Virus record (IMG/VR): IMGVR_UViG_3300025018_002598
Location: 19,340-83,339 of that record
Strand: one strand, 5' to 3'
Origin: a virus
Taxonomy: Duplodnaviria; Caudoviricetes
DNA length: 64,000 nucleotides
This document shows, in pieces, positions 675 to 41,778 of the stretch; position 1 is the first letter of the stretch, and every line of letters begins with the position of its first letter. The notes beneath the pieces were generated by a model that was given only the letters and a program-made list of their open reading frames with translations, searched no databases and was not told where the DNA came from. A program made the translations under genes and the position numbers.

Positions 675-3600
675 ATGTTTCTTAAGTATGCCAAATTACA
701 AATTCTAAATGTAGCATCTTTTAATAAAGATTTTGAAAAAAAGTCTTCTATGGAAGATGTAGTCCTTTATAGCCCAAAGACAGCATTTATTAAACATGAT
801 ATTTCAGAAAATCTTATCATGGCTAAAAATGCTTTGGACATCGTTTCGGAATTAGAACAAAGAGATCCTGAAGAATGGATCGTTTTCAGGTCTAGGGCCA
901 TTGACGCTGGTGGTTCTGAAGAGACTGGTGAAATATGGCATGGAGCCAATGATAACGGTGATTTCTTCTCAGAAGAAGAATTACTTAAATCTTACAGCTC
1001 CACTGAAGACGGTAAAGAAATTAAATCATTTGAAACTTTCATTAATTGTCCTATTTTTACTAACCATCAAAATACTGATATAGAAAAAGCTCGTGGAAAA
1101 GTAATTAATGCTTTTTACGACAAAGACAATCATTGCGTTTATACTGACGCCTTGGTTGATGCCAAAGCTTATCCAGAATTAGCTCGTGGAATTAGAGAAG
1201 GATATATATCCGACGTTTCTATGGGTGCTTCTGTTAAATTTAGCGATTGTTCAATTTGTAATCACAGAGCAACAAATGAAAAAGAATATTGTGTTGTTCC
1301 TGGTACCTATATTGAAACGGAAAACCATACAATTAAACCAATTGAAGATATTGAAATTGGTGACAAAGTATTAACGCAAGATGGCACTTATCAATCGGTT
1401 TTAGATATACATGAAAGAGAAATAGAAGATGAAATATTTGAAATTTATGCTTCTGGAAATAATGTTCCATTAGAAATAACTGGAAATCATGAAGTTTTAA
1501 CTATACCAAAAATGTCATATAGAATGACTTTTGAACAATATATTCAAAGAAATGATTTAAAGCCTGTATATAAAAGAACTGATGAGTTAAATATTGGTGA
1601 TTTTGTTCTTTATCCAAAAGAGAATCTTCGAAAATCTGAAAATCCTTTAAAATCTTTAAGATTTGCTAGGCTTCTAGGCTTATTTATTTCAGAAGGTAAT
1701 CTTTTTAGAAATAAAAAAGGAGAGATTAACGCTTTAGAATTTCATTTATCTTTAGAAGAGAAAGATCTTCTTGAAGATTTATTGAATCTAATAAAAGAAT
1801 TTGCGGTAAGAGAAGCTAAAGTTTATAAAAAAACTTCAACTTATCACATAAGAATATGGGATAAAGATCTAGCCGAAAAGGTTGTTTCGTTATGTGGACA
1901 TGGGGCAAGGACCAAATCTCTTTCAAAAGAAATAATTAATGCTTCTGGTGAATTTAAAATAAATTTATTAGGCGGAATAATAGATGGTGATGGCTGGGTA
2001 GATCCAAAAGACTATAGAAGCGTAATTGTCACGTCTTCCGACAATTTGTCTTATCAAATTAAAAAAATATCACAAGATCTTGGCTTTTCATGCTCTATTT
2101 ACAAGACTTTAAATACTCAAAATGAAACTGTAAAATACTCCAGTGGAGAACCAAACACAATAAATCATGTAAGATTTGGGTCTCATGCAACGTCAATAAT
2201 AAAACAAGGAAAATGTAAAAAACTTGAGAAATTAAATTGTCAAGAATTTGAAAAGGCAACATCGAGTTGGATTTTTGACAATTATCATGTTTCAAAAATT
2301 AGAAAAATATCTAAAAAATATTATTCTGGAACTGTTATGAATTTAGCCGTAGAAAACAATGAAAATTATATAGCGAATGGAATGATTGTTCATAACTGTT
2401 CACATGTAAAAAATCACAAAGGCAAGAAGTTGGGCGGAAAAGAAGTCTATGAAATAAATCATGGAATTAAATTCATAGAATTGTCTGCTGTTACAGATGG
2501 TGCTTGTGATAATTGTACTATTCAAAATTCATACACTGGTATGGAATTCTTAGATAAATTAAAAAATATGATTTCGGCAAGTCATTCAAATGCAGTCGCC
2601 TTGAAAAAAGTTGCAATGTTCAAGGGTTCTGCTGGTGATGATATTGATAAGTTGAATAAGTCCTTAGATTTGCTCAAGGGAGTTGCCGAGACAATCCTCA
2701 ATTCAAAAGATGTTGATTTTGAATTCTTGGAAGATATTGGTCAACTCTTAGCTGAACTCCAAAGTTTGATTGTTGATTTAGTTGAAGCGGGATTTGCGAA
2801 TCAAAACCCTGCTGGCGAAACACAAGGGGAAGGCACTCAACAACAAGCTGCTGATGCACTCACTGGTGGAGAAGAAGTTCCTGCCAATCAAGGTGCTCCA
2901 CCTACCGGAGACAATCAGTCTCAGGGATTGATGAGTCCTACCTCCCCTGTTTCATTAGGTGGGAAGGAACAAAATATAAAAACTGCGAATTTATTAGAAG
3001 GTTTAAAAACCCAAGTTCCAGAAATAAAGAAAATACTTGCTTCAATTAACAACTTAAAAAACCAAATAACTTTTGACGGAGATGAAGAAATGGCAACCAG
3101 CAAGAACATTAAAAGAAAACTAGCTTCTAACAGAATTAGTGAGAAGTTCTCTGAAATCTTAGAGAGTCAGGTTTCAAATAATGAACCTGCAATTATTAGT
3201 GACGGCCCCTATTCTGTTAAAATTGATTTTAACAAAGGAATTCAGGGGTTTGTTGGCAATAATAGAGTGATCGCTATGACTGTTGAAGAAGTTGGCGATG
3301 ATCTTCTTGGTTTAGCCAAAGTAAATCCTTCCGTAATTGGTGGAAGATTGATTGAAAAGCTTGCTTCCAAATACGATGAAAATGGAGAGGTAAAAATGAG
3401 CAAACAAGCAAAAGATTTAAATATTAAGGAGGCTTTTATTGAGAATCCTCCTCCAGTTGAGCAAGTTCAGGAAGGTCAGTTAGAAGATCTATCTGGTAAT
3501 TTCGACAGAAAGAACCATCCTGAATTAGCCGAAGGACAAATCGGTGCTACAACTCAAAAGCAATTAGAAAATGTTCCAAAGTCTAAAGAGACTGGAAAGG

Positions 3601-6600
3601 GTGACTGGAATAGAGTTCGTCCTGAAGGAACAAAAGAAGATCGTTATGTTCAAGAAATTGAACTAGATCGTCAACGTCCTACTGATTATGGTTCCGAAAG
3701 AGCTTCTTCTGGAGCGGCTAAGGCAGAAGGACAGCACTCAGGTACTCAAGAGAGTCAGTTACAAATGTCTCTCAACTATGGTTCTGAGAGATGGATTGAC
3801 GACGCAGCTCCTTGTGATTATTTACCTACTACTGAAGGTCAGTTTTCTGGTAAGGACCGCAAAGGAAAGGCTGTTGATGAAGTTTACGAAGGTCAACTTA
3901 CTGGACATAGACAAGGAAATGATTCTGAAGTTTCTTCAGAATCATTTCCTCACACAGCAAGTGTAGAAGATTATATTGCTGGTAAAGTTGTTACAGCAAT
4001 TAAGAATGGTCTTACTAACCTTGTAATGGAACATGGTATATCTCCAAAAACAATTGTGAATTCAAAAATTGATTCCAAGAAAATTGCTTCTGGAAATAGA
4101 AATAAAATTTTAAAGAAAGCACAACTTGCACAGGTTGATGTTCAGAATCTTGCAGAAAATGAAATTATAGACCAAATTGGTCCTAACATGGATTTGGCAG
4201 AAGATTATTTAGATGATGCAATTGTTGTATTGTTTGAAGATCCTGCCGAACTTGAAGCGGAACTTAGAAATTATACAAAAGAAAGACTTGCTAAGATTCA
4301 AGAAGTTTCTGATAAAGAAGATTCTGATGAAACTGTAGAGTCTAAGAGAAGAAAAGCTCTTAAAGAAAAGGCTTTCAAGAGAAACGCAAATCGTGTCTCT
4401 ATGCCTGTTGATGCTCAGAAATTAACAGAACTTTTCCCAGGAGTAAGTGACTTCACTGGTCTTGATGCTAAATTAGTTAAGCAGAAATTCCTTCAGTCTC
4501 AACCTGGTGCAAAACTTCTTGATTTCCGTAAAGTTGACGGTGGATTTGTTGCTGAAGTAGAACTTCCAGAACAGTCTGGTGAAGAAAGTGGAAATTCCAT
4601 TAATTCAAATGGTGTTCCATCTCCTTCAATTCCTTCCAACAATGCTCCTTCTCACGATTCTCAATCTGCTCAGTCTGCTCAGTCCGATCAGTCTGTAGAA
4701 TCAACAGTCGAAGTTGCTGCCGAAACAGTTGATAAACTTAAAGCTTTTGCAAAGCAGAAGAAAGAAGCACAGTCTCCTGCTGGAACAACAATGCCTCCTC
4801 CTCAAGGTGGTGCCGCTGGTGGTGGCGCTGCTGGAGACCCAATGGGTGGCGGTGGTGCTCAAGATTTATTTGGGAACACTCCTGAAGGCGCTGGCGATGT
4901 CATTGATGAAACAGAGGATGATATGGAAGATGAAGTTGGAGAAGCTAAACCATTTGGTTCTTTCAACCCATTTACCGGAAATGAAAACGTAGATGTTGTA
5001 GATGGACACTATAGAGATTCTGATACAGGTCTTGAATGGGAAGTTCAGATGAACATCAATGTTCTTAATCCAGAAAAAATTGATGATATTCAGTTTAAAG
5101 AAAATACAGATGCCGACTCAGAACTTACTGAAGGCGAAGATATTAATGAAGAAATTGCTGGTCAGCCTAACGCTGCTCCAATGGGAGCACCTGCTGGTGG
5201 TGGCGCTGCTGCCGATCCAATGGGAATGGGTGCAGGTCCAATGGCGTCATATCCTGGCTGGGTAAAAGATGCTCCATTGAAACTTGCAATGAAAGCTTCT
5301 CCAGAATATTTCTTGAATGAAAAAATGAAAAGTGATCTTAATATCAAGACAGCCTCTAAGCCAGTCGGTTCTATCTGTCCTCAGTGTGCTTCACACAAAG
5401 TGGCTTTCAGAAACTCCGAAGGTAATTGTGCTTCTTGCGGATGTAAGACATATGTTACTGCTAAAAAGAATAAGGCTGGAAGTCTTGATGTAGATCTTTA
5501 TATGCTTCCAAACCTTAAGAGAGCGGAAAAAGAAAACCGTTTTGGTGGACACGCAGTTACTGCGAATGTTGAAAACAAAGAAGTTGTAGAAAAAGCAATT
5601 CATCAGATTTTATCTGATAGAAGAGCTTTAGTAAAAGCAGCTTCTATATTAGAAAAAGATCCAATGCTTGCATGTATCAGCGAACAGTCTGTTCGTGGAT
5701 TCGACTCAGAAGATTCGATTCAGATTTGTGCTTCCATTAAATCATATCTCACAAAACAAGCTCAATTTGAAGAAGAGGATGACGAAGAAGATGATAATTC
5801 AGAAGAAACTTCATCTCCAACAGTACATGATTCTGACTCAGAAGTAACTGATAGTGTTGAGTTTGAAGATGAAATTGATGAAAGTGGAGATTCCGAAGGT
5901 CTTGAAGAAGTTGAAGAAGAGTCAGATACAGTTGAAGATACTGACGATTCCGATCTTGAAGAAGTATTTGAAGATGAGTCTGGTGAAGAAGGTGACGACT
6001 TTAGTTTAAATCTTCAGTTCACTGATTCTGATGGTAAGTCTGGCAGCATTAACATTACAGAAGATGGTGTTGATGTAAACGGAGATGTTTTTGAAGGTGC
6101 GGAATCTACTGATGATTTCGGTTCAGACATCGCAGAAGACGGCGAAGAAATGTTTGAAGACGAAATGGGTGAAGAAGCTCCTGAAGAAATTGAAATTACA
6201 GAAATCGTTGAAACAGAAGATGACGATCCATCTTCCTTGGACGGACTATTCTCTTCCTCTGTAGATAAACTCGATAGAGAAACAGAAGAATCCGAAGGTC
6301 CAAGTGAAGAATCTGAAGATGAATTTGACGTAATGGCAAATTCACTTAACACTTCTGAACTTCTTAGAGGTTCAAGAGTAGCTTCTTCAAATAGAAGCGG
6401 TGGTTCTTCTCTAGACCTTGGCTTCTTGAAAGCAGCTCTTCAGTCAGTTCCAACTGATACTGGAGCGGACGTTCCTAGAAGTGAAGAGCATGGTGTTCGT
6501 GACGAAGGTGGAAATGTTCATACAACTAAAAATGAAAATTCCGCAAAAAAAAGAAATTCTATTGCCGACACTTCTTTTAATGAAAAGGGAGTAGCTAATG

Positions 6601-7358
6601 GATCAGACAGAGGAGTTGAACAAATCAAACCTCAAACTGGAAAACATGCTGGATCTGCTGACGATTTTATTGTGACAGCGGGTGAAGACAATAAAGAAAA
6701 AGGCAAAAGAAAAGATGTTTGCCCAGACGACTTCGCTGATAAGCAATGTCCAGGAAAGGGTAAAGATAAATCAAACAAGCCTTACAAGGGTGGTGAGAAA
6801 GTAGAATCTTGTAATGCTGGTTCAGAAAAGAAGAAGGTTCAAGCTCAAACAGCACCTACTCAGCAATTAGAGCCAGTTGACGCAATTGAAGAAGGAAAAG
6901 AAGAGTCTAATGGAGAGAAGTTTGACATTCCAAGAGATAAATCTAAATCAAATCCTGAAATCAATGTAAAGCGTAAAGATGTTACTAGCCCTACAAAGGT
7001 AAGAAATAGTGATTATGGCTTTGGTCAGAAAGCTAAAGATCTTCATACAGAAGTAGTTCCTAGAGACTCCTCTGGTGATGGACTTGGCGGACCTTCTACT
7101 ACATTTGAAGATGAAGTAGCAGAGAATAGAACTTCTGGAAGTCCTGATACATATGTTCAGGAATATCAAAAGCAGAATCAGATCAAGCCAACTCCAGCAG
7201 GTAATGCAGAAAATCACGCCACAGCATCTAAAGAAGTTTGTATTAAGATAGCAAAAGCAAATGACTTAAATGCTAATAGATTAGAAGCAATTAACTTTGG
7301 TTCATTCTATGTTGTTCGTGACCTAGATTCTGGAAGAACATTTAAATATTCAGAATAA
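675..7358 (+). CDS. Prohead protease / scaffold-like polyprotein (2227 aa) with intein
   Basis: The N-terminal domain has phage prohead-protease-like motifs (NDNGDFF, FTNH, GKV, VSMG followed by CxxC...CxH). An intein occupies aa 206-574, followed by low-complexity, Zn-ribbon (CPQC...CASC) and acidic segments. It lies upstream of the scaffold and MCP genes. Confidence 0.8.
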   Translation: MFLKYAKLQILNVASFNKDFEKKSSMEDVVLYSPKTAFIKHDISENLIMAKNALDIVSELEQRDPEEWIVFRSRAIDAGGSEETGEIWHGANDNGDFFSEEELLKSYSSTEDGKEIKSFETFINCPIFTNHQNTDIEKARGKVINAFYDKDNHCVYTDALVDAKAYPELARGIREGYISDVSMGASVKFSDCSICNHRATNEKEYCVVPGTYIETENHTIKPIEDIEIGDKVLTQDGTYQSVLDIHEREIEDEIFEIYASGNNVPLEITGNHEVLTIPKMSYRMTFEQYIQRNDLKPVYKRTDELNIGDFVLYPKENLRKSENPLKSLRFARLLGLFISEGNLFRNKKGEINALEFHLSLEEKDLLEDLLNLIKEFAVREAKVYKKTSTYHIRIWDKDLAEKVVSLCGHGARTKSLSKEIINASGEFKINLLGGIIDGDGWVDPKDYRSVIVTSSDNLSYQIKKISQDLGFSCSIYKTLNTQNETVKYSSGEPNTINHVRFGSHATSIIKQGKCKKLEKLNCQEFEKATSSWIFDNYHVSKIRKISKKYYSGTVMNLAVENNENYIANGMIVHNCSHVKNHKGKKLGGKEVYEINHGIKFIELSAVTDGACDNCTIQNSYTGMEFLDKLKNMISASHSNAVALKKVAMFKGSAGDDIDKLNKSLDLLKGVAETILNSKDVDFEFLEDIGQLLAELQSLIVDLVEAGFANQNPAGETQGEGTQQQAADALTGGEEVPANQGAPPTGDNQSQGLMSPTSPVSLGGKEQNIKTANLLEGLKTQVPEIKKILASINNLKNQITFDGDEEMATSKNIKRKLASNRISEKFSEILESQVSNNEPAIISDGPYSVKIDFNKGIQGFVGNNRVIAMTVEEVGDDLLGLAKVNPSVIGGRLIEKLASKYDENGEVKMSKQAKDLNIKEAFIENPPPVEQVQEGQLEDLSGNFDRKNHPELAEGQIGATTQKQLENVPKSKETGKGDWNRVRPEGTKEDRYVQEIELDRQRPTDYGSERASSGAAKAEGQHSGTQESQLQMSLNYGSERWIDDAAPCDYLPTTEGQFSGKDRKGKAVDEVYEGQLTGHRQGNDSEVSSESFPHTASVEDYIAGKVVTAIKNGLTNLVMEHGISPKTIVNSKIDSKKIASGNRNKILKKAQLAQVDVQNLAENEIIDQIGPNMDLAEDYLDDAIVVLFEDPAELEAELRNYTKERLAKIQEVSDKEDSDETVESKRRKALKEKAFKRNANRVSMPVDAQKLTELFPGVSDFTGLDAKLVKQKFLQSQPGAKLLDFRKVDGGFVAEVELPEQSGEESGNSINSNGVPSPSIPSNNAPSHDSQSAQSAQSDQSVESTVEVAAETVDKLKAFAKQKKEAQSPAGTTMPPPQGGAAGGGAAGDPMGGGGAQDLFGNTPEGAGDVIDETEDDMEDEVGEAKPFGSFNPFTGNENVDVVDGHYRDSDTGLEWEVQMNINVLNPEKIDDIQFKENTDADSELTEGEDINEEIAGQPNAAPMGAPAGGGAAADPMGMGAGPMASYPGWVKDAPLKLAMKASPEYFLNEKMKSDLNIKTASKPVGSICPQCASHKVAFRNSEGNCASCGCKTYVTAKKNKAGSLDVDLYMLPNLKRAEKENRFGGHAVTANVENKEVVEKAIHQILSDRRALVKAASILEKDPMLACISEQSVRGFDSEDSIQICASIKSYLTKQAQFEEEDDEEDDNSEETSSPTVHDSDSEVTDSVEFEDEIDESGDSEGLEEVEEESDTVEDTDDSDLEEVFEDESGEEGDDFSLNLQFTDSDGKSGSINITEDGVDVNGDVFEGAESTDDFGSDIAEDGEEMFEDEMGEEAPEEIEITEIVETEDDDPSSLDGLFSSSVDKLDRETEESEGPSEESEDEFDVMANSLNTSELLRGSRVASSNRSGGSSLDLGFLKAALQSVPTDTGADVPRSEEHGVRDEGGNVHTTKNENSAKKRNSIADTSFNEKGVANGSDRGVEQIKPQTGKHAGSADDFIVTAGEDNKEKGKRKDVCPDDFADKQCPGKGKDKSNKPYKGGEKVESCNAGSEKKKVQAQTAPTQQLEPVDAIEEGKEESNGEKFDIPRDKSKSNPEINVKRKDVTSPTKVRNSDYGFGQKAKDLHTEVVPRDSSGDGLGGPSTTFEDEVAENRTSGSPDTYVQEYQKQNQIKPTPAGNAENHATASKEVCIKIAKANDLNANRLEAINFGSFYVVRDLDSGRTFKYSE
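1290..2396 (+). mobile_element. Intein (369 aa) with LAGLIDADG homing endonuclease in prohead protease
   Basis: Starts CVVPGT..IEDIEIGDKVLT (block A/B) and ends YIANGMIVHN followed by Cys. LAGLIDADG-like motifs LLGLFISEG and LLGGIIDGDG. Confidence 0.93.
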
Positions 7359-7513: not shown

Positions 7514-8833
7514 ATGAGGAGTATAGGAATGAATAAAACACAATTATTTTCAGATGGAACCTTTATCACAGCTTCCGATTCTGGTGAAATAAAAAAGGCT
7601 ACAAAGAATGAAGTCGTAGCATTTTTATCTTCACAGTTTCCGGCATCAAAAAGTGGTGCTGAGTTAGAGGGTGTGAGATTCGACAGTGAGTCTGGTTATG
7701 CATATGCAAGATATGCAAATCAAAAAGTTTTCAAGAAGAGAATAGCTCAATCGGCTCCAGTAAATCAAAGTGAGCCTGTTGATTCTTGCGACAGAACTCA
7801 GGAACATGGTGGAAAGAGTGAAAAATTCGACACACCAAGAAATGAGTCTAAATCAAAGCCAGAAAAGTCTGACAGAAAGGATGTTGATAATCCTACAAAA
7901 ATTAGAAATAAGAATTATGAACCTGGAAAAGATAATGTTCATACTGATGAGGTTCCTTGCAGTAAGAGCAATTCGGGTCTAAAGGGCAGTAAGGGAACTA
8001 CTTTTGATGAAGAGAAGTCTCATACTCAAAAAAGTGGAAACCCAGATTCATATGTTCAAGATTTTTCCTCTTCAGAAAAGCCAACTCCAGCAGGTAAAGA
8101 AGGAAACCACGCAGTAGCTAATACAGAAGGTGTTCAAATTAAAAGTTCGTCAGATATGTATGGTTATGAATCTGTAATGGGTGGCAAAGACGAAGATAAA
8201 GAAGGCAAAGGCTTTCCTTTCTTCGGAAAAGGGGACGATGAAGATAAAGAAGACAAAGAAGATAAAGAAGACAAAGAAGATAAAACAGAAAAAGGCGCAG
8301 ACAAAACCGAGAAATCTTCCAAAGATGATAAAAAGGAAGAAGGCGAGAAAAAAGAAAGTAAGGCGGAAAGCCAACTTAGTATAAAGGTATCTGAACTTCA
8401 AGGCAACCTATCTAAGTTAAGTAAAGAACTAGACAAAGGACGTATTCGTGAAGCCCGTCGCAATGCAGCCGTCAAGCTAGTCTTGGCAAAGCGAGACAGA
8501 AATCCAGAGAAGTTCCTTGATGGGGAAGTTTTCTTGGAAGAAGTTAACAAGATCGCAAAGAAAATGAGTGTAGAAGCAATCGAAACAGCAATTGAAGAAA
8601 TCGGTATTATTAGATTACAAGAAGTAGAAAATTCGAAAGCGATCAAAGAAGCTGCTGCTGAACTAAAAGCAGAACCAAACAGAGCAGGCTTAATGCAAAG
8701 CCTTGTTGTCCCACAGGACAATTATAAATTTGCAAGCAAGTCAAATGAATCAAATCTATCAGAAGTTCTGATGGCACATACCAAATTTGGTAAAGATGTA
8801 GAAAAAATGAGAAAGTACCATGAGGAAAATTAA
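7514..8833 (+). CDS. Scaffold-like head protein (439 aa)
   Basis: Lies between the protease and MCP genes, with a charged EDK-repeat linker and a C-terminal coiled-coil-like region. Shares a domain of about 125 aa with the C-terminus of the 2227-aa protein. Confidence 0.6.
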   Translation: MRSIGMNKTQLFSDGTFITASDSGEIKKATKNEVVAFLSSQFPASKSGAELEGVRFDSESGYAYARYANQKVFKKRIAQSAPVNQSEPVDSCDRTQEHGGKSEKFDTPRNESKSKPEKSDRKDVDNPTKIRNKNYEPGKDNVHTDEVPCSKSNSGLKGSKGTTFDEEKSHTQKSGNPDSYVQDFSSSEKPTPAGKEGNHAVANTEGVQIKSSSDMYGYESVMGGKDEDKEGKGFPFFGKGDDEDKEDKEDKEDKEDKTEKGADKTEKSSKDDKKEEGEKKESKAESQLSIKVSELQGNLSKLSKELDKGRIREARRNAAVKLVLAKRDRNPEKFLDGEVFLEEVNKIAKKMSVEAIETAIEEIGIIRLQEVENSKAIKEAAAELKAEPNRAGLMQSLVVPQDNYKFASKSNESNLSEVLMAHTKFGKDVEKMRKYHEEN

Positions 8834-9525: not shown

Positions 9526-10392
9526 ATGAGTTTAATCAAGAATACAGCTAATGATGCAGAAAAAGAGTTGCTTATCGCACAGGCTCTTGAAACACCAGAA
9601 GGTCGTGTGGCTTTGGCCCAGGCTATGGTGGAGCCTATCAAGCGAGCACTTGAGTATCAAGCAATCGGTAGAAAGCTTCTAATGGTGGATGAACTTCCAC
9701 AGGGAGCGTTGGCAAGATACGAGAAGGACGTAGCGTCTACAGCTTATGTTGTTTCAAGACGTGGTGGCGTCCGTGACCGTATCGTTGAAGGCGAAGAAGT
9801 GTTGGTTCCAACATTTGAAATCGCAACAAATCCTCAGATTCGTTTGAGTGAAATTAAAGCACGTAGATTTTATATCGTTGACCGTGCGCAGATGAAAGCT
9901 AAAGAAGCTATTCAGAAGCAAGAAGATACCGAAATTCTCGGTGATATTAATGCTGCTGTTCGTTCTGACCAGACTGTAACTCAGTCCGGTGACTTGAGCA
10001 TCGCTTCTCTTAACTATGCTTTCTCTACAATTGAGTCTCACGACTTAACTGTAGCTAAGATCGTTATGCACCCACAGCAGTATGCTGACATCCGTTTGTT
10101 CGGACGTGACGTGTTTGACGAAGCAACAAGACGTGACGTACTTATGTCTGGTCTCTTCGGACACCTTTGGACATCCGACATTCACGTTTCACACAGAGTA
10201 CCACCAGGTTCCGTTTACTTACTAGCTCCGGCTGAGTATGTAGGTGCTATTCCAGTAAGACAGGACATTACTGTTCTTCCTGCTGACGATCCTAAGAACT
10301 TGAGACTTGGATGGGTTATCTTTGAAGAAATCGGTATTGTTGTTATCAACGACTACGCAATCGCAAAGATTAATCTCACAGCAACTAGCTAA
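9526..10392 (+). CDS. Major capsid protein (HK97-fold type, 288 aa)
   Basis: Follows the protease, scaffold and decoration genes, has strongly biased high-expression codon usage, and is followed by a strong terminator. Size and C-terminal beta-strand pattern fit an HK97-type MCP. Confidence 0.85.
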   Translation: MSLIKNTANDAEKELLIAQALETPEGRVALAQAMVEPIKRALEYQAIGRKLLMVDELPQGALARYEKDVASTAYVVSRRGGVRDRIVEGEEVLVPTFEIATNPQIRLSEIKARRFYIVDRAQMKAKEAIQKQEDTEILGDINAAVRSDQTVTQSGDLSIASLNYAFSTIESHDLTVAKIVMHPQQYADIRLFGRDVFDEATRRDVLMSGLFGHLWTSDIHVSHRVPPGSVYLLAPAEYVGAIPVRQDITVLPADDPKNLRLGWVIFEEIGIVVINDYAIAKINLTATS

Positions 10393-10420
10393 TCAGTAGT
10401 TGACAACCACAAACCCAATG

Positions 10421-10450
10421 GGGGCGGGCCGAAAGGCTCGCCCCTTTCTT
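10421..10450 (+). terminator. Intrinsic terminator after MCP
   Basis: GGGGCGGGCC-GAAA-GGCTCGCCCC (10-bp stem, GNRA loop) followed by TTTCTT. Confidence 0.9.
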
Positions 10451-10452
10451 TA

Positions 10453-11430
10453 TTAGTAATATCTGTCAATAAAATTAATGACTTCATTGTCCGTCATTTC
10501 AAAACTAAAATCAATAGATCCATCTCTTACAAATCTTTCAATCTCACGTATCATTCTAGATCTTAAAGATAGTATTTCTGAAATGTATCTATCTTTAGAC
10601 AACAAAGAAGTCTCTTGAGAGAATAGATCGTATATATATTCATTAATTTTAATATAATCTATTTCTTCATTTCCCTTTACTTTTTCTTGAAAATTTTCTA
10701 ATTCACGATCTAAAAAGTCTGACTGTCCAGAAAGTACAGATTCTTTTATTGAATAATTAAGAAAATAAGGTCTCAAAATAGAAGTCCCCCATGAAATATC
10801 TCTAAAGCCATATGATGTAAGATATTCACCTCGACTTATATGAATTACCCTATCTTCTTTCAATGTATTTTTATTAGAAATTACATCTCCAGTCCCATAG
10901 ATATATTCTTTTCTTCCATTTTCCATCTTTTGTTCAACATTGTCTGGAATAAGATTTGAAATAGATAAATATGTTCCTGAACTTAAATATTTATTCATAT
11001 TTGAAGATACAAAATTATCTCCAAATAAAAAATAGTTTCTAGCGAGTTCGACGACTATTTGATTCATCTCAAGCAAGACTTCTTTTTGTCTGTCTGAACC
11101 TTCCATTTTAAACTTGTAGAATTGAAAAGACGACAATCTCTGTATTGTTTCAGAAACTTCAGAGTAGTTTGTATTGTAATATCTACAATAAGTATAGGTC
11201 TCCCTTCGTTTTGTAGGTAATTGCCACTTCATCGCAGCGAGATGCTGAATAAAATGATCTTCCGGCTCTAGATTGGCCGCTTCTTTCTGAGTCCTACTTA
11301 ATCCGTATTCTTTCAATTTATATCTAACGTATCTTGACGTATAATTCAAGATTTCTGATATCTCGTAACTGGATTTCCTCTGTTTGATGTATAGGTCGTA
11401 AAGAATATCTCTATTTATTTGCTTTTTCAT
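10453..11430 (-). CDS. N-terminal HTH fused to truncated/degenerate portal-like domain
   Basis: HTH-like start (LYDLYIKQRKSSYEISEILNYTSRYVRYKLKEYG), then portal-type motifs YFLFGDNFV, LIPDNV, RVIHI and WGTSILRP. Confidence 0.55.
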   Translation of the reverse strand: MKKQINRDILYDLYIKQRKSSYEISEILNYTSRYVRYKLKEYGLSRTQKEAANLEPEDHFIQHLAAMKWQLPTKRRETYTYCRYYNTNYSEVSETIQRLSSFQFYKFKMEGSDRQKEVLLEMNQIVVELARNYFLFGDNFVSSNMNKYLSSGTYLSISNLIPDNVEQKMENGRKEYIYGTGDVISNKNTLKEDRVIHISRGEYLTSYGFRDISWGTSILRPYFLNYSIKESVLSGQSDFLDRELENFQEKVKGNEEIDYIKINEYIYDLFSQETSLLSKDRYISEILSLRSRMIREIERFVRDGSIDFSFEMTDNEVINFIDRYY

Positions 11431-11533
11431 GATGACTACCTCCGTCGAAGTCTAGGAAATGATACAATTTCCTAGTTTGTTTTTTATGGCCATTTGTTGT
11501 CTCGTATCAATTTGAAAAAATAGGAAGATTAAA

Positions 11534-13217: not shown

Positions 13218-13715
13218 ATGGAAGTTATAAAAAAAACAGTTTATAAAACTTCTGACGGAAGAGTTTTTCTAGATATAAATAAGGCAAATTCTCATGAAGA
13301 AACAATAAAACTAATGAAAAGGGATGCGAAAGTCAAAGACTTAGAAAAAAAAGTTAAAGATCTCTTTCCCATTTCGAAAAAAGTCAACTGTGAACAAGAC
13401 AAAGAACTTATGGAATTAACAAAGAAGATTCCTAGTTATTTAGAATATCGAATAGATTTGTATTGTGAATTCACTGGAATTCCTCTAAGGGTATACTCTA
13501 CTAAATTCCATGACAGTGGACATCAGTATGAAAAAAGCTATTCAGAAGATATAGATAGAATTTTAGATAGACCGCATACAATCTTAAGGTTGGGTAACGT
13601 GGTTAGGACATATTCTAAAGAATCTTATAAAAAAGACATTGTTCCTATTTTAGAGAAAAACCATCTAGTCATAAAGAAATATTTGTTTGAGTTCTATACT
13701 GGAGTGTTGAAATGA
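13218..13715 (+). CDS. Hypothetical protein
   Basis: 165-aa ORF with AAGGA RBS. The N-terminal VYKTSDGRVF motif is common in phage small proteins. Confidence 0.65.
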   Translation: MEVIKKTVYKTSDGRVFLDINKANSHEETIKLMKRDAKVKDLEKKVKDLFPISKKVNCEQDKELMELTKKIPSYLEYRIDLYCEFTGIPLRVYSTKFHDSGHQYEKSYSEDIDRILDRPHTILRLGNVVRTYSKESYKKDIVPILEKNHLVIKKYLFEFYTGVLK

Positions 13716-13906
13716 AAAAAGAAGATAAATACGTAGGCGCCATTCCAGTAAGACAGGACATTACTGTGCTTCCAGCAGATAAAGAAGAAGGATTGAAGTT
13801 AGGATGGATAATTTATGAAGAACTTGGCCCAATCCATTTTGCTGAAGTTTTCTGGAAAGATTTTTCTGATGAAGACAAGATAAAGAAAATCAACGAATAT
13901 AGATGA
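13712..13906 (+). CDS. 64-aa protein carrying MCP residues 238-270
   Basis: YVGAIPVRQDITVLPAD (17 aa) is identical to the MCP, followed by LKLGWIIYEELG versus LRLGWVIFEEIG. Confidence 0.85.
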   Translation: MKKEDKYVGAIPVRQDITVLPADKEEGLKLGWIIYEELGPIHFAEVFWKDFSDEDKIKKINEYR

Positions 13907-13912
13907 GACGAA

Positions 13913-14155
13913 ATGAAGCATATAATCAGAAAAGAATTATATGAAACGAAAGAATATACTATTGAAGAAATTCACGAAGAATTATATGAAACGAAAGAAT
14001 ATACTATTGAAGAAATTCACGAAGAATTAAATCGAAGATTAGAGGCGACAAAAGAAAAGGACTTGCCGAGATATTTATCTTACAATAAAGATAAGTTTGA
14101 GTATGATGAAGATGGAAAAATAATAAAAGTAATTAGTTTGAGAGAAGAGGTTTGA
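13913..14155 (+). CDS. Hypothetical protein with 15-aa tandem duplication
   Basis: ELYETKEYTIEEIHE occurs twice. Confidence 0.55.
   Translation: MKHIIRKELYETKEYTIEEIHEELYETKEYTIEEIHEELNRRLEATKEKDLPRYLSYNKDKFEYDEDGKIIKVISLREEV
13932..14029 (+). repeat. Perfect 45-bp tandem repeat (about 2.2 copies)
   Basis: AAGAATTATATGAAACGAAAGAATATACTATTGAAGAAATTCACG at 13932-13976 and 13977-14021, plus a partial third copy. Confidence 0.95.
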
Positions 14156-14601
14156 TTGTGCCAACTTATCCTATAGAATTAGATAGAGGAATTTTTGAAA
14201 TTGCCGTCTCTGATTATGTCGAAAAAAAGATGGATAAAATTGATTTTATTCGCAATTATGTGGTGAGAAGTTTAGAGAATGAAGTGAAAGGAAAAATAGT
14301 AAGAATCTTGTCTGCTCATTTCCACCAAGATCCTATGATGCGTCAAAACATATATAGAATAGAAGTAGATTACATCCATGAAGAAAGATATGGAGATCAT
14401 CTTGGTTCTGTATTTTCTCAGTTATTAGAGAATGGAAGTTATAGAAATCCAGAATATGATGAGCTTAGATTTGAACAACAATATTTTGTGGACTTTCTAC
14501 CTACGACTCCCGTACTAAAGCCTTCGAAAGAAAAAGTAAAAAAAGAAATTACATATACCAAAATAGATTTAGATGATTTTAAATTCATGGAAGTTGAATA
14601 G
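14152..14601 (+). CDS. Hypothetical protein
   Basis: 149-aa ORF whose TTG start overlaps the upstream stop. Confidence 0.6.
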   Translation: MIVPTYPIELDRGIFEIAVSDYVEKKMDKIDFIRNYVVRSLENEVKGKIVRILSAHFHQDPMMRQNIYRIEVDYIHEERYGDHLGSVFSQLLENGSYRNPEYDELRFEQQYFVDFLPTTPVLKPSKEKVKKEITYTKIDLDDFKFMEVE

Positions 14602-14615
14602 GAAAGGAAAAAATA

Positions 14616-15248
14616 ATGGGAATGTATACTGTTGTAATTCACCCTGAAACAAAAGAAGAGATTCAGATAAAGTGTGGTGGAGATTGGTGTGATAAATATG
14701 AAGTGGGAGATGAAGTCCCATTCAAAATACATCCTGATTGTTCTATGATGGCAGATTTTGCTGATGGGATCTATGTTGGGCTTGGCGAAAGAAATGATTT
14801 CAAAAGTTTCAACAGTTACTATGTTGTAATTTGTGAAGGGAAGATTGCAGAGGTTTCCGAAAAATATCACTCTATGGATTCTAGGGCTGGTTATGAAAGA
14901 GAAGAACTTTACAATAAATATAAAGATCGTTTTATAGAACTTGAAAAGTCTTGGTGGAGTGATGAGGCTTGGAAAAAAGACGAAGAACTAAAGAAAGAAC
15001 TTGAGATTAAAAGGAAAGAATATTTAGATAGACATCATCCTAATTATGAAAAATATAGTGATGAAGAGAAATTTACAGCCAATGTAGTACATGCAATGTC
15101 TGCTTCTAGGCTCAATTACCAAGAGATTGGTAAAAAACTTATGTCCATACAAGAACTACCTCAAGGTGCTTTGGCTAGATATGAAAAAGACGTTGCCAGT
15201 GTTCATCATGTTGTAGGGAAGAGGGAAGAAAATGAAAATAAGAATTGA
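14616..15248 (+). CDS. 210-aa protein ending in a copy of MCP residues about 42-79
   Basis: LNYQEIGKKLMSIQELPQGALARYEKDVASVHHVVGKR versus MCP LEYQAIGRKLLMVDELPQGALARYEKDVASTAYVVSRR. Confidence 0.85.
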   Translation: MGMYTVVIHPETKEEIQIKCGGDWCDKYEVGDEVPFKIHPDCSMMADFADGIYVGLGERNDFKSFNSYYVVICEGKIAEVSEKYHSMDSRAGYEREELYNKYKDRFIELEKSWWSDEAWKKDEELKKELEIKRKEYLDRHHPNYEKYSDEEKFTANVVHAMSASRLNYQEIGKKLMSIQELPQGALARYEKDVASVHHVVGKREENENKN

Positions 15249-15429
15249 AATGTGGGAAGATTTTGCATATTCCCTTGGAGAATTGAAAAACGAAACTACA
15301 TCCTTTTGTGCGATTGCTGAAGTCACTGAAGAAGAACATAAAGAGATGCAAAGAATAATGAAAGATTACTATAGTTTACAGGAAAGATTAACAGATCTTT
15401 ATTCAAAATACGAAAAGGAAAAAAAATGA
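15232..15429 (+). CDS. Small hypothetical protein
   Basis: 65-aa ORF coupled to its neighbours. Confidence 0.55.
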   Translation: MKIRIEMWEDFAYSLGELKNETTSFCAIAEVTEEEHKEMQRIMKDYYSLQERLTDLYSKYEKEKK

Positions 15430-15881
15430 GTTTAGAATCAGATAAAAAAAACGAAGAGTTAATTCAATTGGCATTAGAGACAGGAGCGGGAAAGCGAGCA
15501 ATACAAGAGGCTCTTGGCGGATATGAAATGTTTAAAAGAAACTTAGATGATAAGAATAAAAACCTTGTCGAAAGATTAAATGAATCATATTCTAAAATAG
15601 AAAATCAATATGAAGAAATGGGCGACAAAGAGTATATAATTCCATTCGGAGTGAAATGTCTGGTGGAAGCGAGAGACTTTCTATTAAAACATCAGGCTTG
15701 GGAAGCGAAAATGTTGGAAACAGATGAATGCTGGGAAGACTCATTACCAAAATTAAATCAAGAACTATATGATGAATCTTTAGATATTCAGGGAAATAGA
15801 AACCACCTATTAAGTCGTATTGAAATGCAATTAAATATTATAATTAAAAAGAATGAGGAGAAACAAAATGCCAAGTCTTGA
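15426..15881 (+). CDS. 151-aa protein starting with MCP N-terminal-like motif
   Basis: EELIQLALETGAGKRAIQEAL versus MCP 14-34 ELLIAQALETPEGRVALAQAM. Confidence 0.65.
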   Translation: MSLESDKKNEELIQLALETGAGKRAIQEALGGYEMFKRNLDDKNKNLVERLNESYSKIENQYEEMGDKEYIIPFGVKCLVEARDFLLKHQAWEAKMLETDECWEDSLPKLNQELYDESLDIQGNRNHLLSRIEMQLNIIIKKNEEKQNAKS

Positions 15882-16056
15882 TCAACATATAGCAGACTGT
15901 ATAGAAGAGATGGGTAAGGGGCACAGAGAAGTTCATATTTGGTTGGATGAATACTTTAATACTATGGGTCCAAAGCATATCTGATTCATTCTCAAGCAGA
16001 TCGATGGCCTCCTCAAGGGATATTGCCTTTTTGATAAAATACGACCAATTTGACAT
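15844..16056 (-). CDS. Short ORF MSNWSYFIKKAISLEEAIDLLENES..., probably truncated
   Basis: Its ATG overlaps the TGA of 16056..16361 (TGATG). The distal half is antisense to the plus-strand gene at 15868. Confidence 0.4.
   Translation of the reverse strand: MSNWSYFIKKAISLEEAIDLLENESDMLWTHSIKVFIQPNMNFSVPLTHLFYTVCYMLIKTWHFVSPHSF
15868..15984 (+). pseudogene. 38-aa ORF, probably 3'-truncated
   Basis: GAGGAG RBS. Translation MPSLDQHIADCIEEMGKGHREVHIWLDEYFNTMGPKHI* ends abruptly where it meets a convergent gene. Confidence 0.4.
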
Positions 16057-16361
16057 CACACTATATCCGAAACGGGCGTATCCGACCACATCTTACAAGA
16101 CCAGTATTTTGCTTTCCATTTAGGTCCAGGATTGTCACATCCATGACGTGCCCTAAAGTTCTTCTTAGCTTCTGGGTTGTCTCTTCTTATTTCCATATTT
16201 GGATCGCCAAAGTTAACTTTGACAACATTTCCCTTATCGTTTTTCACGAAGACTTTATATTTTTTAACGTCACCCTTTGTGGGTTTGTTTAGTGTAACTT
16301 TTTTACCCTGATATTCAGATTTAGATTCTGAAAACTTCATTAAATTAAATTTCGACATCAA
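16056..16361 (-). CDS. Conserved small basic viral protein (KKYKVFV..VNFGD..FRARHxC...YWSC family)
   Basis: The motif pattern is one I recognise from many large phages. Function unknown. Confidence 0.7.
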   Translation of the reverse strand: MMSKFNLMKFSESKSEYQGKKVTLNKPTKGDVKKYKVFVKNDKGNVVKVNFGDPNMEIRRDNPEAKKNFRARHGCDNPGPKWKAKYWSCKMWSDTPVSDIV

Positions 16362-16369
16362 ATTTCACC

Positions 16370-17572
16370 TCAACCTTGAATTGTTTTTTTTAAGTATTCT
16401 AAATACTTTTTACTAATATTATCCCAACTGTTATCATTACAGAATTTCTTCTGTTTTTCAATTACTTCATTGTAAAATTTTTCATCAGAAAAATACCTAT
16501 CTATAATCTTAGCAATTCCCTCTGGATTATCAGAAGAAGGAACTCCTATTGATTTTAAGTCGTCAAATAGGTGACACTCTCCAACAACAAGGGGAAGTCC
16601 AAAAGACATTGCTATCTTAGAGGCTCCAGAAGATCCTCTAACATCATGATCGGGATGTGTTTTGTAAGGAAGAACACAAACCTTATTTGTCTTAAGAGAC
16701 TCTGCCAAACCTTCGTCACTAATGAAACCTCTTACAATCCCTACATTATCATCGATCTCCAACTCTTCGACTATTTTCTTTAGTTTGTTATAGTATTCAT
16801 CATGGATATTTATATTGTTTTTATTCTCAGAAAAGAAACATGTAAGGTATATTTCTGGATACTTTTCAATCAGTATTTTTATAGATCTTATTGTTGATTC
16901 GAAATTCTTATAGGGAAAACCAAAACCATATTGAATGACAGTATGTTCTGTTTGATATAGATTCCAGTTCTTATCTAAATTCATTTCTGGACAACCATGA
17001 TGAATGACTTCGATAGAATTTGTATATCCCTTTTTTATCAAAAGTTCTTTTGCTTCTTCTGTATGCACAATTACATTTCTCAAAGGGCTTTCACAAAGAA
17101 ACTTATCTTTATGTTCATATACTGAATGCAATGCAACAACATATGGATAGTCTTGAATGAATGTCAATAAGTTATACCAATGAACAACGGTTGGAAATAT
17201 ACCGTATTCATGTTGAACTAATATGGCATCAGGATTAAACTGTTTAATCTCTTTCTTTAGATTTTTGATGGATTCTCTTCTTCTCCAGCAATAAACTACT
17301 TCTATGTCTTTGTAATTTTCTTTAGATGTTTCTGAATCGTTTTTTGTTTTATACTCTGAAAAAATCCTGATATTCTTATTTGTCTTTAGCATAGAGTCAA
17401 CTAGGAATTTAGAATACGTGCTAATTCCACATGACTGGTCCCAATTTGTAATCAAGGCAACTTTGAAATCCTTAAGAGATTTCATTTCTGATGAGTTTTG
17501 AAAGTTCATTGTATTCTCCTGTTCTTTCGAGAAACTGATTAACCTTTTCAGAACGTTCATATTGGACCTCAT
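16370..17572 (-). CDS. Glycosyltransferase, GT-B / GT4 family
   Basis: CGISTYS, ILVQHEYGIF, VEVIHHG, YGFGFPYKNFE and AMSFGLPLV motifs. The true start is probably 17509 or 17485. Confidence 0.85.
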   Translation of the reverse strand: MRSNMNVLKRLISFSKEQENTMNFQNSSEMKSLKDFKVALITNWDQSCGISTYSKFLVDSMLKTNKNIRIFSEYKTKNDSETSKENYKDIEVVYCWRRRESIKNLKKEIKQFNPDAILVQHEYGIFPTVVHWYNLLTFIQDYPYVVALHSVYEHKDKFLCESPLRNVIVHTEEAKELLIKKGYTNSIEVIHHGCPEMNLDKNWNLYQTEHTVIQYGFGFPYKNFESTIRSIKILIEKYPEIYLTCFFSENKNNINIHDEYYNKLKKIVEELEIDDNVGIVRGFISDEGLAESLKTNKVCVLPYKTHPDHDVRGSSGASKIAMSFGLPLVVGECHLFDDLKSIGVPSSDNPEGIAKIIDRYFSDEKFYNEVIEKQKKFCNDNSWDNISKKYLEYLKKTIQG

Positions 17573-18407
17573 TTAAGGATGTCAATATTTTATTTTTACT
17601 AAATTCATAATAATCAATATATGGAATTTCAAAATCTTTGCAAAATCTTTTTAGTTTTGAATGAAATCCTATACATATCGTTGGAATGTTATAGATTATA
17701 CCTAAGACCATTCCATGATATCTCATTGAAATCAAATATTTTGAGTTTTCAATTCTATTGATTATTTCATCTTCATTAGTAACTTCATCGAATTTTCTAT
17801 TTAAAGAATAACTGTTAATATTATGGTAAACATGAGAGTCATTGTGTTGACGTGTTCTTTGTAAAGGGTAAAAGCTTGTAGGTTTTTTGTATTCATCTAA
17901 GAATCTTGAGGTCTCTACACAAAATCTTTGATATTCTTGAAATTTAGATATACTAGAATTATTTCTAGGGACTACATTGGAGTTTGGAATGAAAATAAGA
18001 TCGGTTGGATTTCTTTTTCCATTCAAAACATAAGGTGGATTGAGAAAATTGATGTCTGGTAAAAGAATTACATTATCATGTTCTTCCTTTACAATATCAT
18101 AACTTTCAGAATCTCTTAATATTACTCTTTTTGAATTTGCTAAGAATTTTTTTTCATTAGCATGTGACAATGAGATAGACCAGAATTCAAATGGTCTATC
18201 TACATGCTTTAATACATCTGCCAATTCTCGGTGAAGAATATTTCCTCCACCAACAATAAGGTATTTGTATTTTTGTTCGCTTACTTTTTTTAAATCGAAA
18301 CTAAATTCTAATCTAAGACCATAGAAAAGTTTTTGAAAGGTTTGTTTAAACCATTCATCACCATAATTTCCCTGATTATACCAGCCATAAAAAAGAATGT
18401 CTGTCAT
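17472..18407 (-). CDS. Polysaccharide pyruvyltransferase-family protein
   Basis: GWYNQGNYGDE, LIVGGGN, ILRDSES, LLPD and ISMRYHGMVLG motifs. Confidence 0.85.
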   Translation of the reverse strand: MTDILFYGWYNQGNYGDEWFKQTFQKLFYGLRLEFSFDLKKVSEQKYKYLIVGGGNILHRELADVLKHVDRPFEFWSISLSHANEKKFLANSKRVILRDSESYDIVKEEHDNVILLPDINFLNPPYVLNGKRNPTDLIFIPNSNVVPRNNSSISKFQEYQRFCVETSRFLDEYKKPTSFYPLQRTRQHNDSHVYHNINSYSLNRKFDEVTNEDEIINRIENSKYLISMRYHGMVLGIIYNIPTICIGFHSKLKRFCKDFEIPYIDYYEFSKNKILTSLNEVQYERSEKVNQFLERTGEYNELSKLIRNEIS

Positions 18408-18419
18408 TATTCAAATCCT

Positions 18420-18683
18420 TTACCATCTAGATGTAATGAAAGAAACCTTGATTGGAAGCAAAGATTTTGTTGTAAGAGTAACTCTCTTGTAAGAAATTGA
18501 ATATGATAAAGAAAAATCATTATCAACACAAGAGGTTCCTTCTACATCAACTGACACATACACCTTTGATGGAGTAAATGGAAGTTTTATACTACTCTGT
18601 TGTTCTTCAGAAGAACCTTCTATTCTCACACTACCTAAATAGAAACCTAAAAAATAAGCGAAAAAATTAAATAAACATCTCAT
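18420..18683 (-). CDS. Small hypothetical protein
   Basis: 87 aa with a GGGG/GA RBS, in the same operon as the transferases. Confidence 0.55.
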   Translation of the reverse strand: MRCLFNFFAYFLGFYLGSVRIEGSSEEQQSSIKLPFTPSKVYVSVDVEGTSCVDNDFSLSYSISYKRVTLTTKSLLPIKVSFITSRW

Positions 18684-18719
18684 GGAAATATCCCCCTATG
18701 TAAATGACTCTTCTTCTAC

Positions 18720-18794
18720 TTTCGCAAAATAAAATTACAATTCCTTTTAGAGTTGTCGCTTTCTCGCAAGGAACATCGTATTTTTTTTTAGAAA
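18720..18794. promoter_or_regulatory. Divergent pair of putative SigH-type promoters
   Basis: Minus strand: AGGA(18745-42)-N18-GAAA(18723-20). Plus strand: AGGA(18769-72)-N18-GAAA(18791-94). Confidence 0.5.
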
Positions 18795-18823
18795 ACAATA
18801 TAAGTTGAAGGTGGAGAAAAGAA

Positions 18824-19399
18824 ATGGCTCAATTGCTTAAAAGAATAGTAGTTTCACAGAGAAGTAATGTCTTAATAGAGGACTTAGGAGTTTTCTTTAG
18901 AAATAGAGGAGACTCCAGAGATTTATTGGGAAACACTCTTCCTGGAAAAAACTATACAAAATTTAGCTTAGAAAAAATATGCTCTTCTCGATCTTTAGAT
19001 AGTTTGGTCAAGTCTGGTCATCTAAAGATATTTGACGAAAACGGAACGGAACTAAGTAGTGTCTCTGGAGGTTCTGGAGAACGTTCTACAAATTTAGCAA
19101 CGCTAAAAGACTTAGACGATTTACCTACGGGAAATGATCTTGGATATACAAATTATAGTTTCGTTGGTGATGGAGGGACGACATATTCAGTAAGGGACAT
19201 ATCTGGAATTTCGTCTATAAGATTCAAATCTAACTCTACTATTATCTATTTAAATGGACTTCCAATTTCAAGAGGCGTAGATTATGAAGAAGATGGAAAT
19301 CTTTATGAATTTTCACTCATAGACATTGGTTCCTCTGGACTTCCTGCCATACCTAACTCTCAGGACCAGTTTACGATAATCTTCAACAGAATACAATAG
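18824..19399 (+). CDS. Hypothetical protein, possibly structural
   Basis: 191 aa with a GGAG RBS and a beta-rich C-terminal half. Confidence 0.65.
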   Translation: MAQLLKRIVVSQRSNVLIEDLGVFFRNRGDSRDLLGNTLPGKNYTKFSLEKICSSRSLDSLVKSGHLKIFDENGTELSSVSGGSGERSTNLATLKDLDDLPTGNDLGYTNYSFVGDGGTTYSVRDISGISSIRFKSNSTIIYLNGLPISRGVDYEEDGNLYEFSLIDIGSSGLPAIPNSQDQFTIIFNRIQ

Positions 19400-40748: not shown

Positions 40749-41778
40749 TTTTTCCCTCCGTAAATTTTATACTATTTGCATTTAGGAAATCTTTAACTCT
40801 ATCTATTGGAATGGCGGCATTCAATCCAGAAGATGACGATTGATCTGTTACGATGGCAGCAGCAACTCCAATTGCTAAGTTGTCATTCTTACTAATTACA
40901 GGACCGCCACTATTACCTGGAGCCAAATTAGCACTAATGAACATATACGTTGAACTTTGACCCTCTTCTTGGTATTCAGTCTCTTTTGCTGAAAGAATCC
41001 CTTCTCCAACAATATTTTCAAAGCCCAAGGGTGTTCCCACTAATATAATTGGATCTCCTTGATTTATATTCTCTGAAGATCCTAATTCAAAAAATTCACC
41101 TTTTACAGATGGGTCATCAAGCGATATTATAGCTATATCTAAAACAGAATCATAAACCATCAATCTTGCATTATATTGTTTCTCTTGATACTTTACTGAT
41201 ATTTTCAAACTATCAGTTTTTCCACTAGGAGAAATAACATGAAAACAAGTAAGTATCATGTTTGAATTGATAAAAAATCCACTACCGATTTCTGTTTCGT
41301 TTCCGTCTGATGAACGAATACTTACACTTTTGCTTAAGGCGTTTTGATACTGATTGTTTTCCGATTGTTTCTTACTAGGTTCTTCTTGTTGATCTGGAAT
41401 CTCTAAGTTCTTTATTTCCCTATATGTATCAAGAACCCAATTCTCGTTTTCCCAAACAGGAAGTTTAGGTCCGCCAGAACCCCATTGTGCTTTTTTGTTT
41501 AATTCTTTATTTTCTAAATTTTTCTTCTTTTCTATTTTTTTTAACTTTTCAATTCTTTGTTTTTTTCGTATTTCTTCCATTCTTTTTTCAGCAGAATCGC
41601 CCTTATTTGATTCACTGAAATAATCATTAGGATGGCCTGCGCTACCGTCACTCCCTTCGAAGAGACCGTAACGGGAATCCCCTCCGAGATTCCCATAAGG
41701 CTGTGTCTGTGTTTTGTCGGAAAGTCCATTAGAAAATGGATCTCTACCAACAACTGCTATTTTATACCAGGTTTTCAT
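40738..41778 (-). CDS. Trypsin-like (S1) serine protease with N-terminal extension
   Basis: GSGFFI, LTCFHVI (His), DIAII (Asp) and GNSGGPV (Ser). Confidence 0.9.
   Translation of the reverse strand: MKTWYKIAVVGRDPFSNGLSDKTQTQPYGNLGGDSRYGLFEGSDGSAGHPNDYFSESNKGDSAEKRMEEIRKKQRIEKLKKIEKKKNLENKELNKKAQWGSGGPKLPVWENENWVLDTYREIKNLEIPDQQEEPSKKQSENNQYQNALSKSVSIRSSDGNETEIGSGFFINSNMILTCFHVISPSGKTDSLKISVKYQEKQYNARLMVYDSVLDIAIISLDDPSVKGEFFELGSSENINQGDPIILVGTPLGFENIVGEGILSAKETEYQEEGQSSTYMFISANLAPGNSGGPVISKNDNLAIGVAAAIVTDQSSSSGLNAAIPIDRVKDFLNANSIKFTEGKNGQ

Follow-up and report, generated by a model that had tools for sequence, protein, structure and literature searches.

Downstream of the gene for the major capsid protein (MCP) of an uncultured phage, a gene on the opposite strand encodes a product that joins a helix-turn-helix (HTH) head to a copy of the portal wing (Table 1). 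The source record is an 83,339-nt IMG/VR virus genome with a CheckV completeness estimate of 95%; the window, meaning the whole stretch of 64,000 nt that we analyzed, comprises bases 19340-83339 of that genome, and coordinates refer to the window unless stated otherwise. The protein, hereafter the paralog, falls into three parts, namely an HTH (residues 1-50), a portal wing homologue (residues 57-246) and a stretch without detectable relatives (residues 247-325). The public gene call comprises 287 aa and starts too late, because the full N-terminus is common to all homologues. An identical protein is recorded in a second assembly of 81,235 nt; an assembly artefact is therefore unlikely. We are highly confident of this identity and architecture, and we regard the gene product as a chimeric accessory protein, not a portal.

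The preliminary description had placed the gene antisense to the capsid operon. It does lie on the opposite strand, but it runs convergent to the MCP gene without overlap, and a terminator separates the two stop codons. On its other side, a divergent island operon starts at 11534, across the intergenic region that holds a perfect palindrome. The island following the paralog is not conserved in L006, a related locus. As had been noted earlier, the paralog is not beside the large terminase gene (terL, 43863-47186), which is about 32 kb away. A 226-aa open reading frame (ORF) overlaps the start of terL, the usual position of the small terminase (TerS).

Several further observations concern the same genome. 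Two small island ORFs carry in-frame MCP fragments that are 64-68% identical to the MCP, at 13703-13828 (MCP residues 229-270) and 15111-15224 (residues 42-79), and the distance of both fragments to the MCP is about the same whether that of this phage, of L006 or of L014 is taken. The ORF at 13913-14155 contains a perfect tandem duplication of 45 nt (13932-14021), by which 15 residues are repeated in frame. Inteins with a LAGLIDADG domain interrupt both the 1107-aa large terminase and a 2227-aa protein at 675-7358, whose N-terminal part gives head-protease-like matches. Collectively, the genome is unusually loaded with selfish elements.

Table 1 Features of the paralog locus and of related loci (window coordinates unless a locus is named)
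Feature	Position	Strand	Evidence or remark
Whole paralog gene (HTH and portal wing)	10453..11430	-	325 aa; ATG at 11430; stop codon 10453-10455; ORF list and four full-length relatives
Three-helix HTH of homing-endonuclease (HEG) type, residues 1-50	11281..11430	-	phmmer matches and AF2 helices
N-terminal wing homologue of the clade's Mu-like (PF06074) portal, residues 57-246	10693..11262	-	hhalign; BLASTP; Foldseek and VIA-align
Codons Y81|C82, equivalent to the position of the first portal insertion	11185..11190	-	BLASTP pieces and junction sequences
Family-specific helical tail, residues 247-325, and stop codon	10453..10692	-	no detectable relatives
Shine-Dalgarno (SD) sequence GGAGGT	11438..11443	-	7 nt before the paralog ATG; read directly from the sequence
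Perfect palindrome CTAGGAAAT-N6-ATTTCCTAG, candidate operator	11452..11475	.	overlaps the -10-like centre; in the 103-nt divergent intergenic region
MCP gene	9526..10392	+	phrog_2522, E 2.7e-70; 53.5% identity to Bacillus phage G gp27
G+C-rich hairpin terminator of the MCP gene	10420..10445	+	between convergent stops; 11-pair stem, 9 G-C, T-rich tail (terminator scan)
Scaffold gene	7514-8833		
HTH-bearing LAGLIDADG_2 homing endonuclease genes after the MCP gene	L006:2589-4076; L014:22024-22637 (22024 onward)		

Homology to the portal wing

We collected 115 related portal clusters, aligned 26 intein-free ones (profile A3) and compared them with the five-member paralog family (A2). The two profiles matched in hhalign with a probability of 99.9% and an E value of 6.3e-34 over 189 columns, with family columns 57-246 placed on portal columns 68-289 of 772; the match to this clade-specific profile covers just the first third of a portal. 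An exhaustive phmmer search of 1.84 billion cluster representatives with the single paralog protein retrieved a genuine portal (P0047) at E 3.4e-4, and tblastn matched the paralog's relatives to the intein-free portal genes of L013 and L014 with E values down to 1.7e-26. Identity between the wing part of the paralog and the clade portals is about 26%, and three of its four relatives (P0003-P0006) gave PF04860 scores below threshold (E 0.003-0.007; 16-17 bits versus a cut-off of 39). Direct Pfam and PHROGs scans of the paralog itself yielded nothing significant, tblastn and blastn found no match to it among 50,697 phage records, a PDB sequence search with the family profile returned only chance matches to triosephosphate isomerase, and an ESM Atlas search produced no usable match.

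Structure prediction pointed in the same direction. When AF2 was given the family alone, the resulting model (pLDDT 56) had portals as its only PDB matches (Foldseek E ~1e-3), with VIA-align Z scores of 10-11.8 over 170-209 aligned residues. A second model, for which portals were included in the alignment and which depends on that alignment, reached a pLDDT of 66-92 over residues 60-240 and again matched portals only. The proposal in the preliminary description that the gene encodes a shortened or degenerate copy of a portal behind an HTH head, to be checked by structural comparison, is thus upheld by the profile match and by the fold searches, in both of which (Foldseek and VIA-align) portals were the sole matches.

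Furthermore, the four portal-type motifs singled out beforehand all coincide with conserved columns of the clade's genuine portals: YFLFGDNFV corresponds to portal EYxxxGDxFPF, LIPDNV to LNPDxVEV, RVIHI to VxHLK and WGTSILRP to YGxSII. With the clade's Mu-like (PF06074/DUF935) portals the paralog shares (F/Y)YSP, WQ(I/L)P(S/T)KRRE, GDxF, (N/I)PDxV, xHxK and YGxSI, and it keeps residues that are near-invariant in the wing subdomain of portals, across members that are only about 30% identical to one another. It differs from these portals in that the HTH replaces their first ~67 residues and in that it lies outside the portal locus. The earlier figure of about 270 aa of portal-like sequence was too high, as homology is demonstrable only over about 190 aa (residues 57-246) and the last 80 aa show none.

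The portal homology stops at the YGxSI...DK motif. Absent from the paralog are the stem, clip, tunnel loop, crown, Cys/His insertion and C-terminal DUF559 nuclease; with the stem, clip, tunnel loop and crown missing, the protein can form neither a DNA channel nor a working portal. Positions 356-424 of the clade portal profile, which match YonE residues 316-387, lie beyond the end of the paralog, and in the domain map of the solved YonE portal these residues comprise the stem, the tunnel loop and the second wing piece (PMC12847820). Judged from these alignments, the paralog holds the N-terminal wing subdomain only. In the C-terminal tail, a search for portal homology gave no second hhalign hit, and AF2 modelled the tail poorly (pLDDT <50), although P0003 and P0004 align over their full length, tails included.

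The bona fide portal that had been sought outside the window is present at genome positions 14388-19253 (L002; phrog_16240, E 5.9e-27) and can be aligned with the paralog, which is accordingly not the genome's only portal. This 1621-aa protein is encoded upstream of the protease-like gene, the scaffold gene and the MCP gene, and its gene ends 87 nt before the window starts. Readings of the paralog as one part of a split portal or as the sole portal were rejected because this complete portal exists. BLASTP aligned the paralog with it in two collinear pieces, residues 65-81 to 103-119 and residues 82-166 to 556-661; the paralog reads straight across Y81|C82, as an intein-free allele would, and is collinear with the spliced portal.

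Two large intein-like insertions interrupt the genuine portal, which also has a DUF559/Vsr-like domain at its C-terminus. The first of these insertions (residues 120-555) contains a LAGLIDADG domain and has non-canonical junctions, with a Gln start and a Ser-Asn end before Cys+1; the second (about 845-1232) has Cys as its first residue and Gly-Asn as its last two, before Thr+1. In more than 100 clusters of clade portals (P0060-P0172), a DUF559/Vsr-like nuclease domain follows a Gly-rich linker at the C-terminus; it is similar in sequence to PDB 3hrl and to 3r3p, the 'mobile intron protein'. So widespread a fusion of portal and nuclease seems to merit a separate study.

The HTH head, the upstream palindrome and the family

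The HTH-like head reported in the preliminary description was recovered by two approaches. Residues 1-50 form a three-helix unit in the AF2 model (helices 7-16, 21-28 and 32-41; pLDDT 83-94), and phmmer aligns them with the HTH modules that recur in LAGLIDADG and HNH endonucleases. Proteins sharing these modules score on Pfam HTH_38, HTH_23 and HTH_28, and phmmer also gave a long tail of proteins that match residues 1-50 alone. Within the family, conservation peaks in the recognition helix, S-x-R-Y-(I/V)-R-Y-K-L; mean identity is 52% in the HTH and 30% in the portal-like part, compared with 48% for genuine portals over the same columns. A search for a second copy of the HTH in the genome found none. 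No nuclease domain was found in the paralog with Pfam or PHROGs, and the PDB search with the family profile yielded no significant match; lacking such a domain, and with residues 57-246 corresponding to a portal wing, the paralog was rejected as a homing endonuclease.

Related phages carry endonuclease genes of this kind in the corresponding place. L014, whose MCP is 85% identical, has a LAGLIDADG_2 gene directly 3′ of the MCP gene, with an N-terminus 33-46% identical to the family HTH, and L006, whose MCP is 90% identical, has a similar endonuclease after the MCP gene and its own paralog 1.1 kb farther on. The slot 3′ of the MCP gene looks like a landing pad, taken in this phage by the paralog in the opposite orientation, and the family looks, from these sequence comparisons, like the 5′ module of such an endonuclease gene fused to a portal fragment.

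The palindrome upstream of the paralog gene has the family form CTAGGAA-N10-TTCCTAG in six of six loci, five with full-length genes and one with a partial gene (this phage, L003-L006 and L007). It ends 20-26 nt before the ATG, just before the SD, and the flanks cannot be aligned between loci. The 83-kb genome holds one copy, and each locus holds one at ≤2 mismatches; a search for a regulon of weaker palindromes gave 38 at ≤4 mismatches versus 31 in shuffled sequences, which is no excess. A scan of IMG/VR returned five matches, which we took as chance occurrences because none is followed by a family gene. The centres (TATAAG, TATATA, TATCTA, TATAAC and TATCAT) are all -10-like, and the region is a candidate promoter. 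About 17 bp separate the centres of the half-sites, a spacing out of phase with a simple HTH dimer. Read as an RNA hairpin, the palindrome has a stem of uneven stability and is not the minimum-energy fold in L005; a DNA site is therefore preferred, and Rfam found no relevant family in the 5′ region of the paralog or in the L003-L005 loci. With the HTH as the best-conserved part of the protein and a common palindrome just upstream of every family start codon, the earlier suggestion of a DNA-binding regulator gains support, and autoregulation of the paralog through the palindrome is, in our judgement, somewhat probable.

Upstream of the relatives' HEG genes the full palindrome is absent, whereas a looser motif, GGAA-N(3-6)-CGTAT, is found ahead of the endonuclease genes in L006 and L014 and of two further genes in this genome. 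The latter two occurrences, of the form GGAA-N(3-5)-CGTAT(A/T), lie at 18770 (+) and 42541 (-), about 40 nt upstream of the ORFs at 18824-19399 and 41762-42484; they resemble the palindrome centre as well as the upstream regions of the relatives' endonuclease genes, and this motif may represent a phage-specific promoter type. The genome also encodes a sigma-like factor (L002:1315-1992). Both half-sites of the palindrome include CTAGG, a match to CTWGG, which E. coli Vsr recognizes; the phage's portal carries a Vsr-like domain, and the overlap is probably a coincidence.

The family is small. In phmmer searches of the 1.84 billion cluster representatives, only four other full-length relatives were found (P0003-P0006; 269-316 aa; ~30% identity); searches for further members found none in IMG/VR and none in GTDB genomes, and JGI metagenomes contributed one partial member (L007). 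With five clusters in the family and no fewer than 115 portal clusters in the clade, the paralog is missing from most relatives. All four full-length relatives lie in variable, HEG-bearing regions of related phages, in differing arrangements: the gene is convergent with the MCP gene here, co-oriented with it and 2.8 kb downstream in L006, and divergent from an MCP-like gene in L005, and L003 and L004 share a different synteny. The divergent gene of L005 (L005:1870-2691) encodes a 273-aa distant MCP homologue (24% identity; phrog_2522, E 2e-7), which could be a capsid paralog rather than the MCP of that phage.

Judged by sequence identity, the paralog diverges faster than its neighbours: it is 28% identical to P0006 while the MCPs of the two phages are 90% identical, and P0003 and P0004 are 32% identical while a syntenic neighbour common to both is 62% identical. 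Nevertheless, all five ORFs (269-325 aa) are intact and agree in their fusion point, their conserved motifs, a strong SD and the upstream element, a pattern that points to a maintained accessory gene.

Possible functions of the fusion

In the model that we favour, the HTH would bind the unique CTAGGAA-N10-TTCCTAG palindrome, probably as a dimer, just upstream of the ribosome-binding site of its own gene. Since the palindrome has a -10-like centre, a bound HTH would repress the paralog's own promoter, and perhaps also the divergent island operon, and this autorepression would hold the level of free paralog protein constant. The portal-derived domain would then be the effector, showing a wing surface and binding the usual partners of unassembled portal protomers. 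The favoured target is the assembly machinery of the portal vertex, with portal protomers or the scaffolding protein being capped or titrated, because scaffold contact and ring formation have been linked to the wing region of the portal in P22 (PMC13386823). The paralog would thereby interfere or regulate, its most plausible opponents being related phages that co-infect the host. We propose this target only tentatively, and the whole chain, an autorepressed portal-wing mimic acting on portal-vertex assembly, is likewise possible rather than probable. The HTH could be a leftover without a present role, and a wing fragment without stem or clip may fail to dock on portal protomers. Moreover, portal subunits pack by rotation and not by two-fold symmetry, so the wing is no obvious dimerizer.

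An anti-defense role would suit a quickly evolving accessory gene in a hypervariable island equally well, and a decoy against a host sensor is nearly as likely as a role in assembly. The preliminary description had put forward a decoy for portal-sensing defenses such as Avs, an idea to which our analyses lent no direct support. As a decoy or sponge, the wing mimic would block a portal-recognizing immune receptor without activating it, while the HTH autorepresses a strong early promoter. Portal-sensing defense systems exist, the paralog is rare, and the same island contains ORFs with MCP fragments; the paralog may even be part of a wider island of virion-protein fragments that serve as decoys. 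The layout also recalls AcrIIA1 of Listeria phages, in which an N-terminal HTH represses its own promoter via a conserved palindrome and the C-terminal domain inhibits Cas9 (bioRxiv 10.1101/787200). Both are accessory phage genes with an N-terminal HTH, a conserved palindrome in their own promoter region and a C-terminal effector, DNA binding being putative for the paralog; in contrast to AcrIIA1, to which it has no sequence or fold relation, the paralog has a putative effector derived from a virion protein. Speaking against a decoy, however, the known sensors use the portal clip or stem, both of which are absent from the paralog, and a mimic of the trigger would be expected to activate the sensor rather than block it, unless activation needs the missing parts. 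On balance, we consider this reading rather unlikely.

Other explanations are less likely than these two. The paralog might be a nuclease-less derivative of an MCP-adjacent LAGLIDADG HEG, acting at the DNA level as a repressor, competitor or site protector in the manner of truncated transposase inhibitors, with the portal piece as a scaffold or oligomerization module. The resemblance to the free-standing LAGLIDADG_2 HEGs of L006 and L014 is considerable: the HTH is homologous to the N-terminus of the post-MCP LAGLIDADG protein of L014 and resembles many other HEG HTH modules, the genes occupy the same neighbourhood, just after the MCP gene, and the upstream GGAA-N(3-6)-CGTAT motif is common to them. 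A 24-bp pseudo-palindrome is, moreover, the typical shape of a LAGLIDADG target. Yet the paralog has no nuclease domain, LAGLIDADG or other, only its own family has the full palindrome, L006 possesses both an endonuclease and a paralog, and the retention of near-invariant portal residues across such divergent members would be unexpected of a mere spacer. We regard such a derivative as improbable. Still less is to be said for a non-functional chimera, that is, debris of endonuclease-driven recombination like the nearby MCP fragments. The island that holds those fragments, in a genome full of inteins and endonucleases, would be a natural source of such debris, but decay would have disrupted the reading frames, whereas five ORFs have stayed intact at about 30% identity with a common fusion point, motifs, SD and upstream element; this explanation seems the least credible of all.

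Only slightly more credible, and also very improbable, is a structural or packaging component, either a minor protein of the portal vertex or a TerS-like binder of a pac site that docks on the procapsid via the wing. Like TerS, the paralog has an N-terminal HTH followed by a possible oligomerization domain, here from a ring-forming protein, and the single candidate binding site of the genome adjoins its own gene, which itself is beside head genes; some pac sites adjoin the gene of their binding protein. In contrast to TerS, the paralog has a different fold, lies away from terL and is absent from most relatives. A reading as TerS proper was rejected given the distance of ~32 kb from terL and the rarity of the family. 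Five family clusters against at least 115 portal clusters, a position and orientation that differ between loci, and a faster evolution than that of the neighbours likewise weigh against a virion or packaging role, and the 226-aa ORF at the start of terL already occupies the usual TerS position.

Few phage proteins are as conserved and as rarely duplicated as portals, and our literature search found no report of a maintained, truncated, HTH-fused portal paralog. As far as sequence comparison can tell, the fusion of an HTH with a portal wing is a new domain architecture, and the conserved cis-element is newly described. The paralog could be a natural portal mimic, autorepressed and presenting the wing surface only, that poisons the portal-ring assembly of competitors or blinds a portal-sensing receptor, a prospect that we consider doubtful at present. 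Should the wing fragment prove to bind partners of the portal or sensors of the host, a virion domain would have found a second use, be it in regulation, as a weapon between phages or as a decoy for immunity. Although the phage is uncultured, the match between HTH and palindrome can be tested directly in vitro. Furthermore, the case shows that endonuclease-rich hot spots beside capsid genes can generate new domain fusions.
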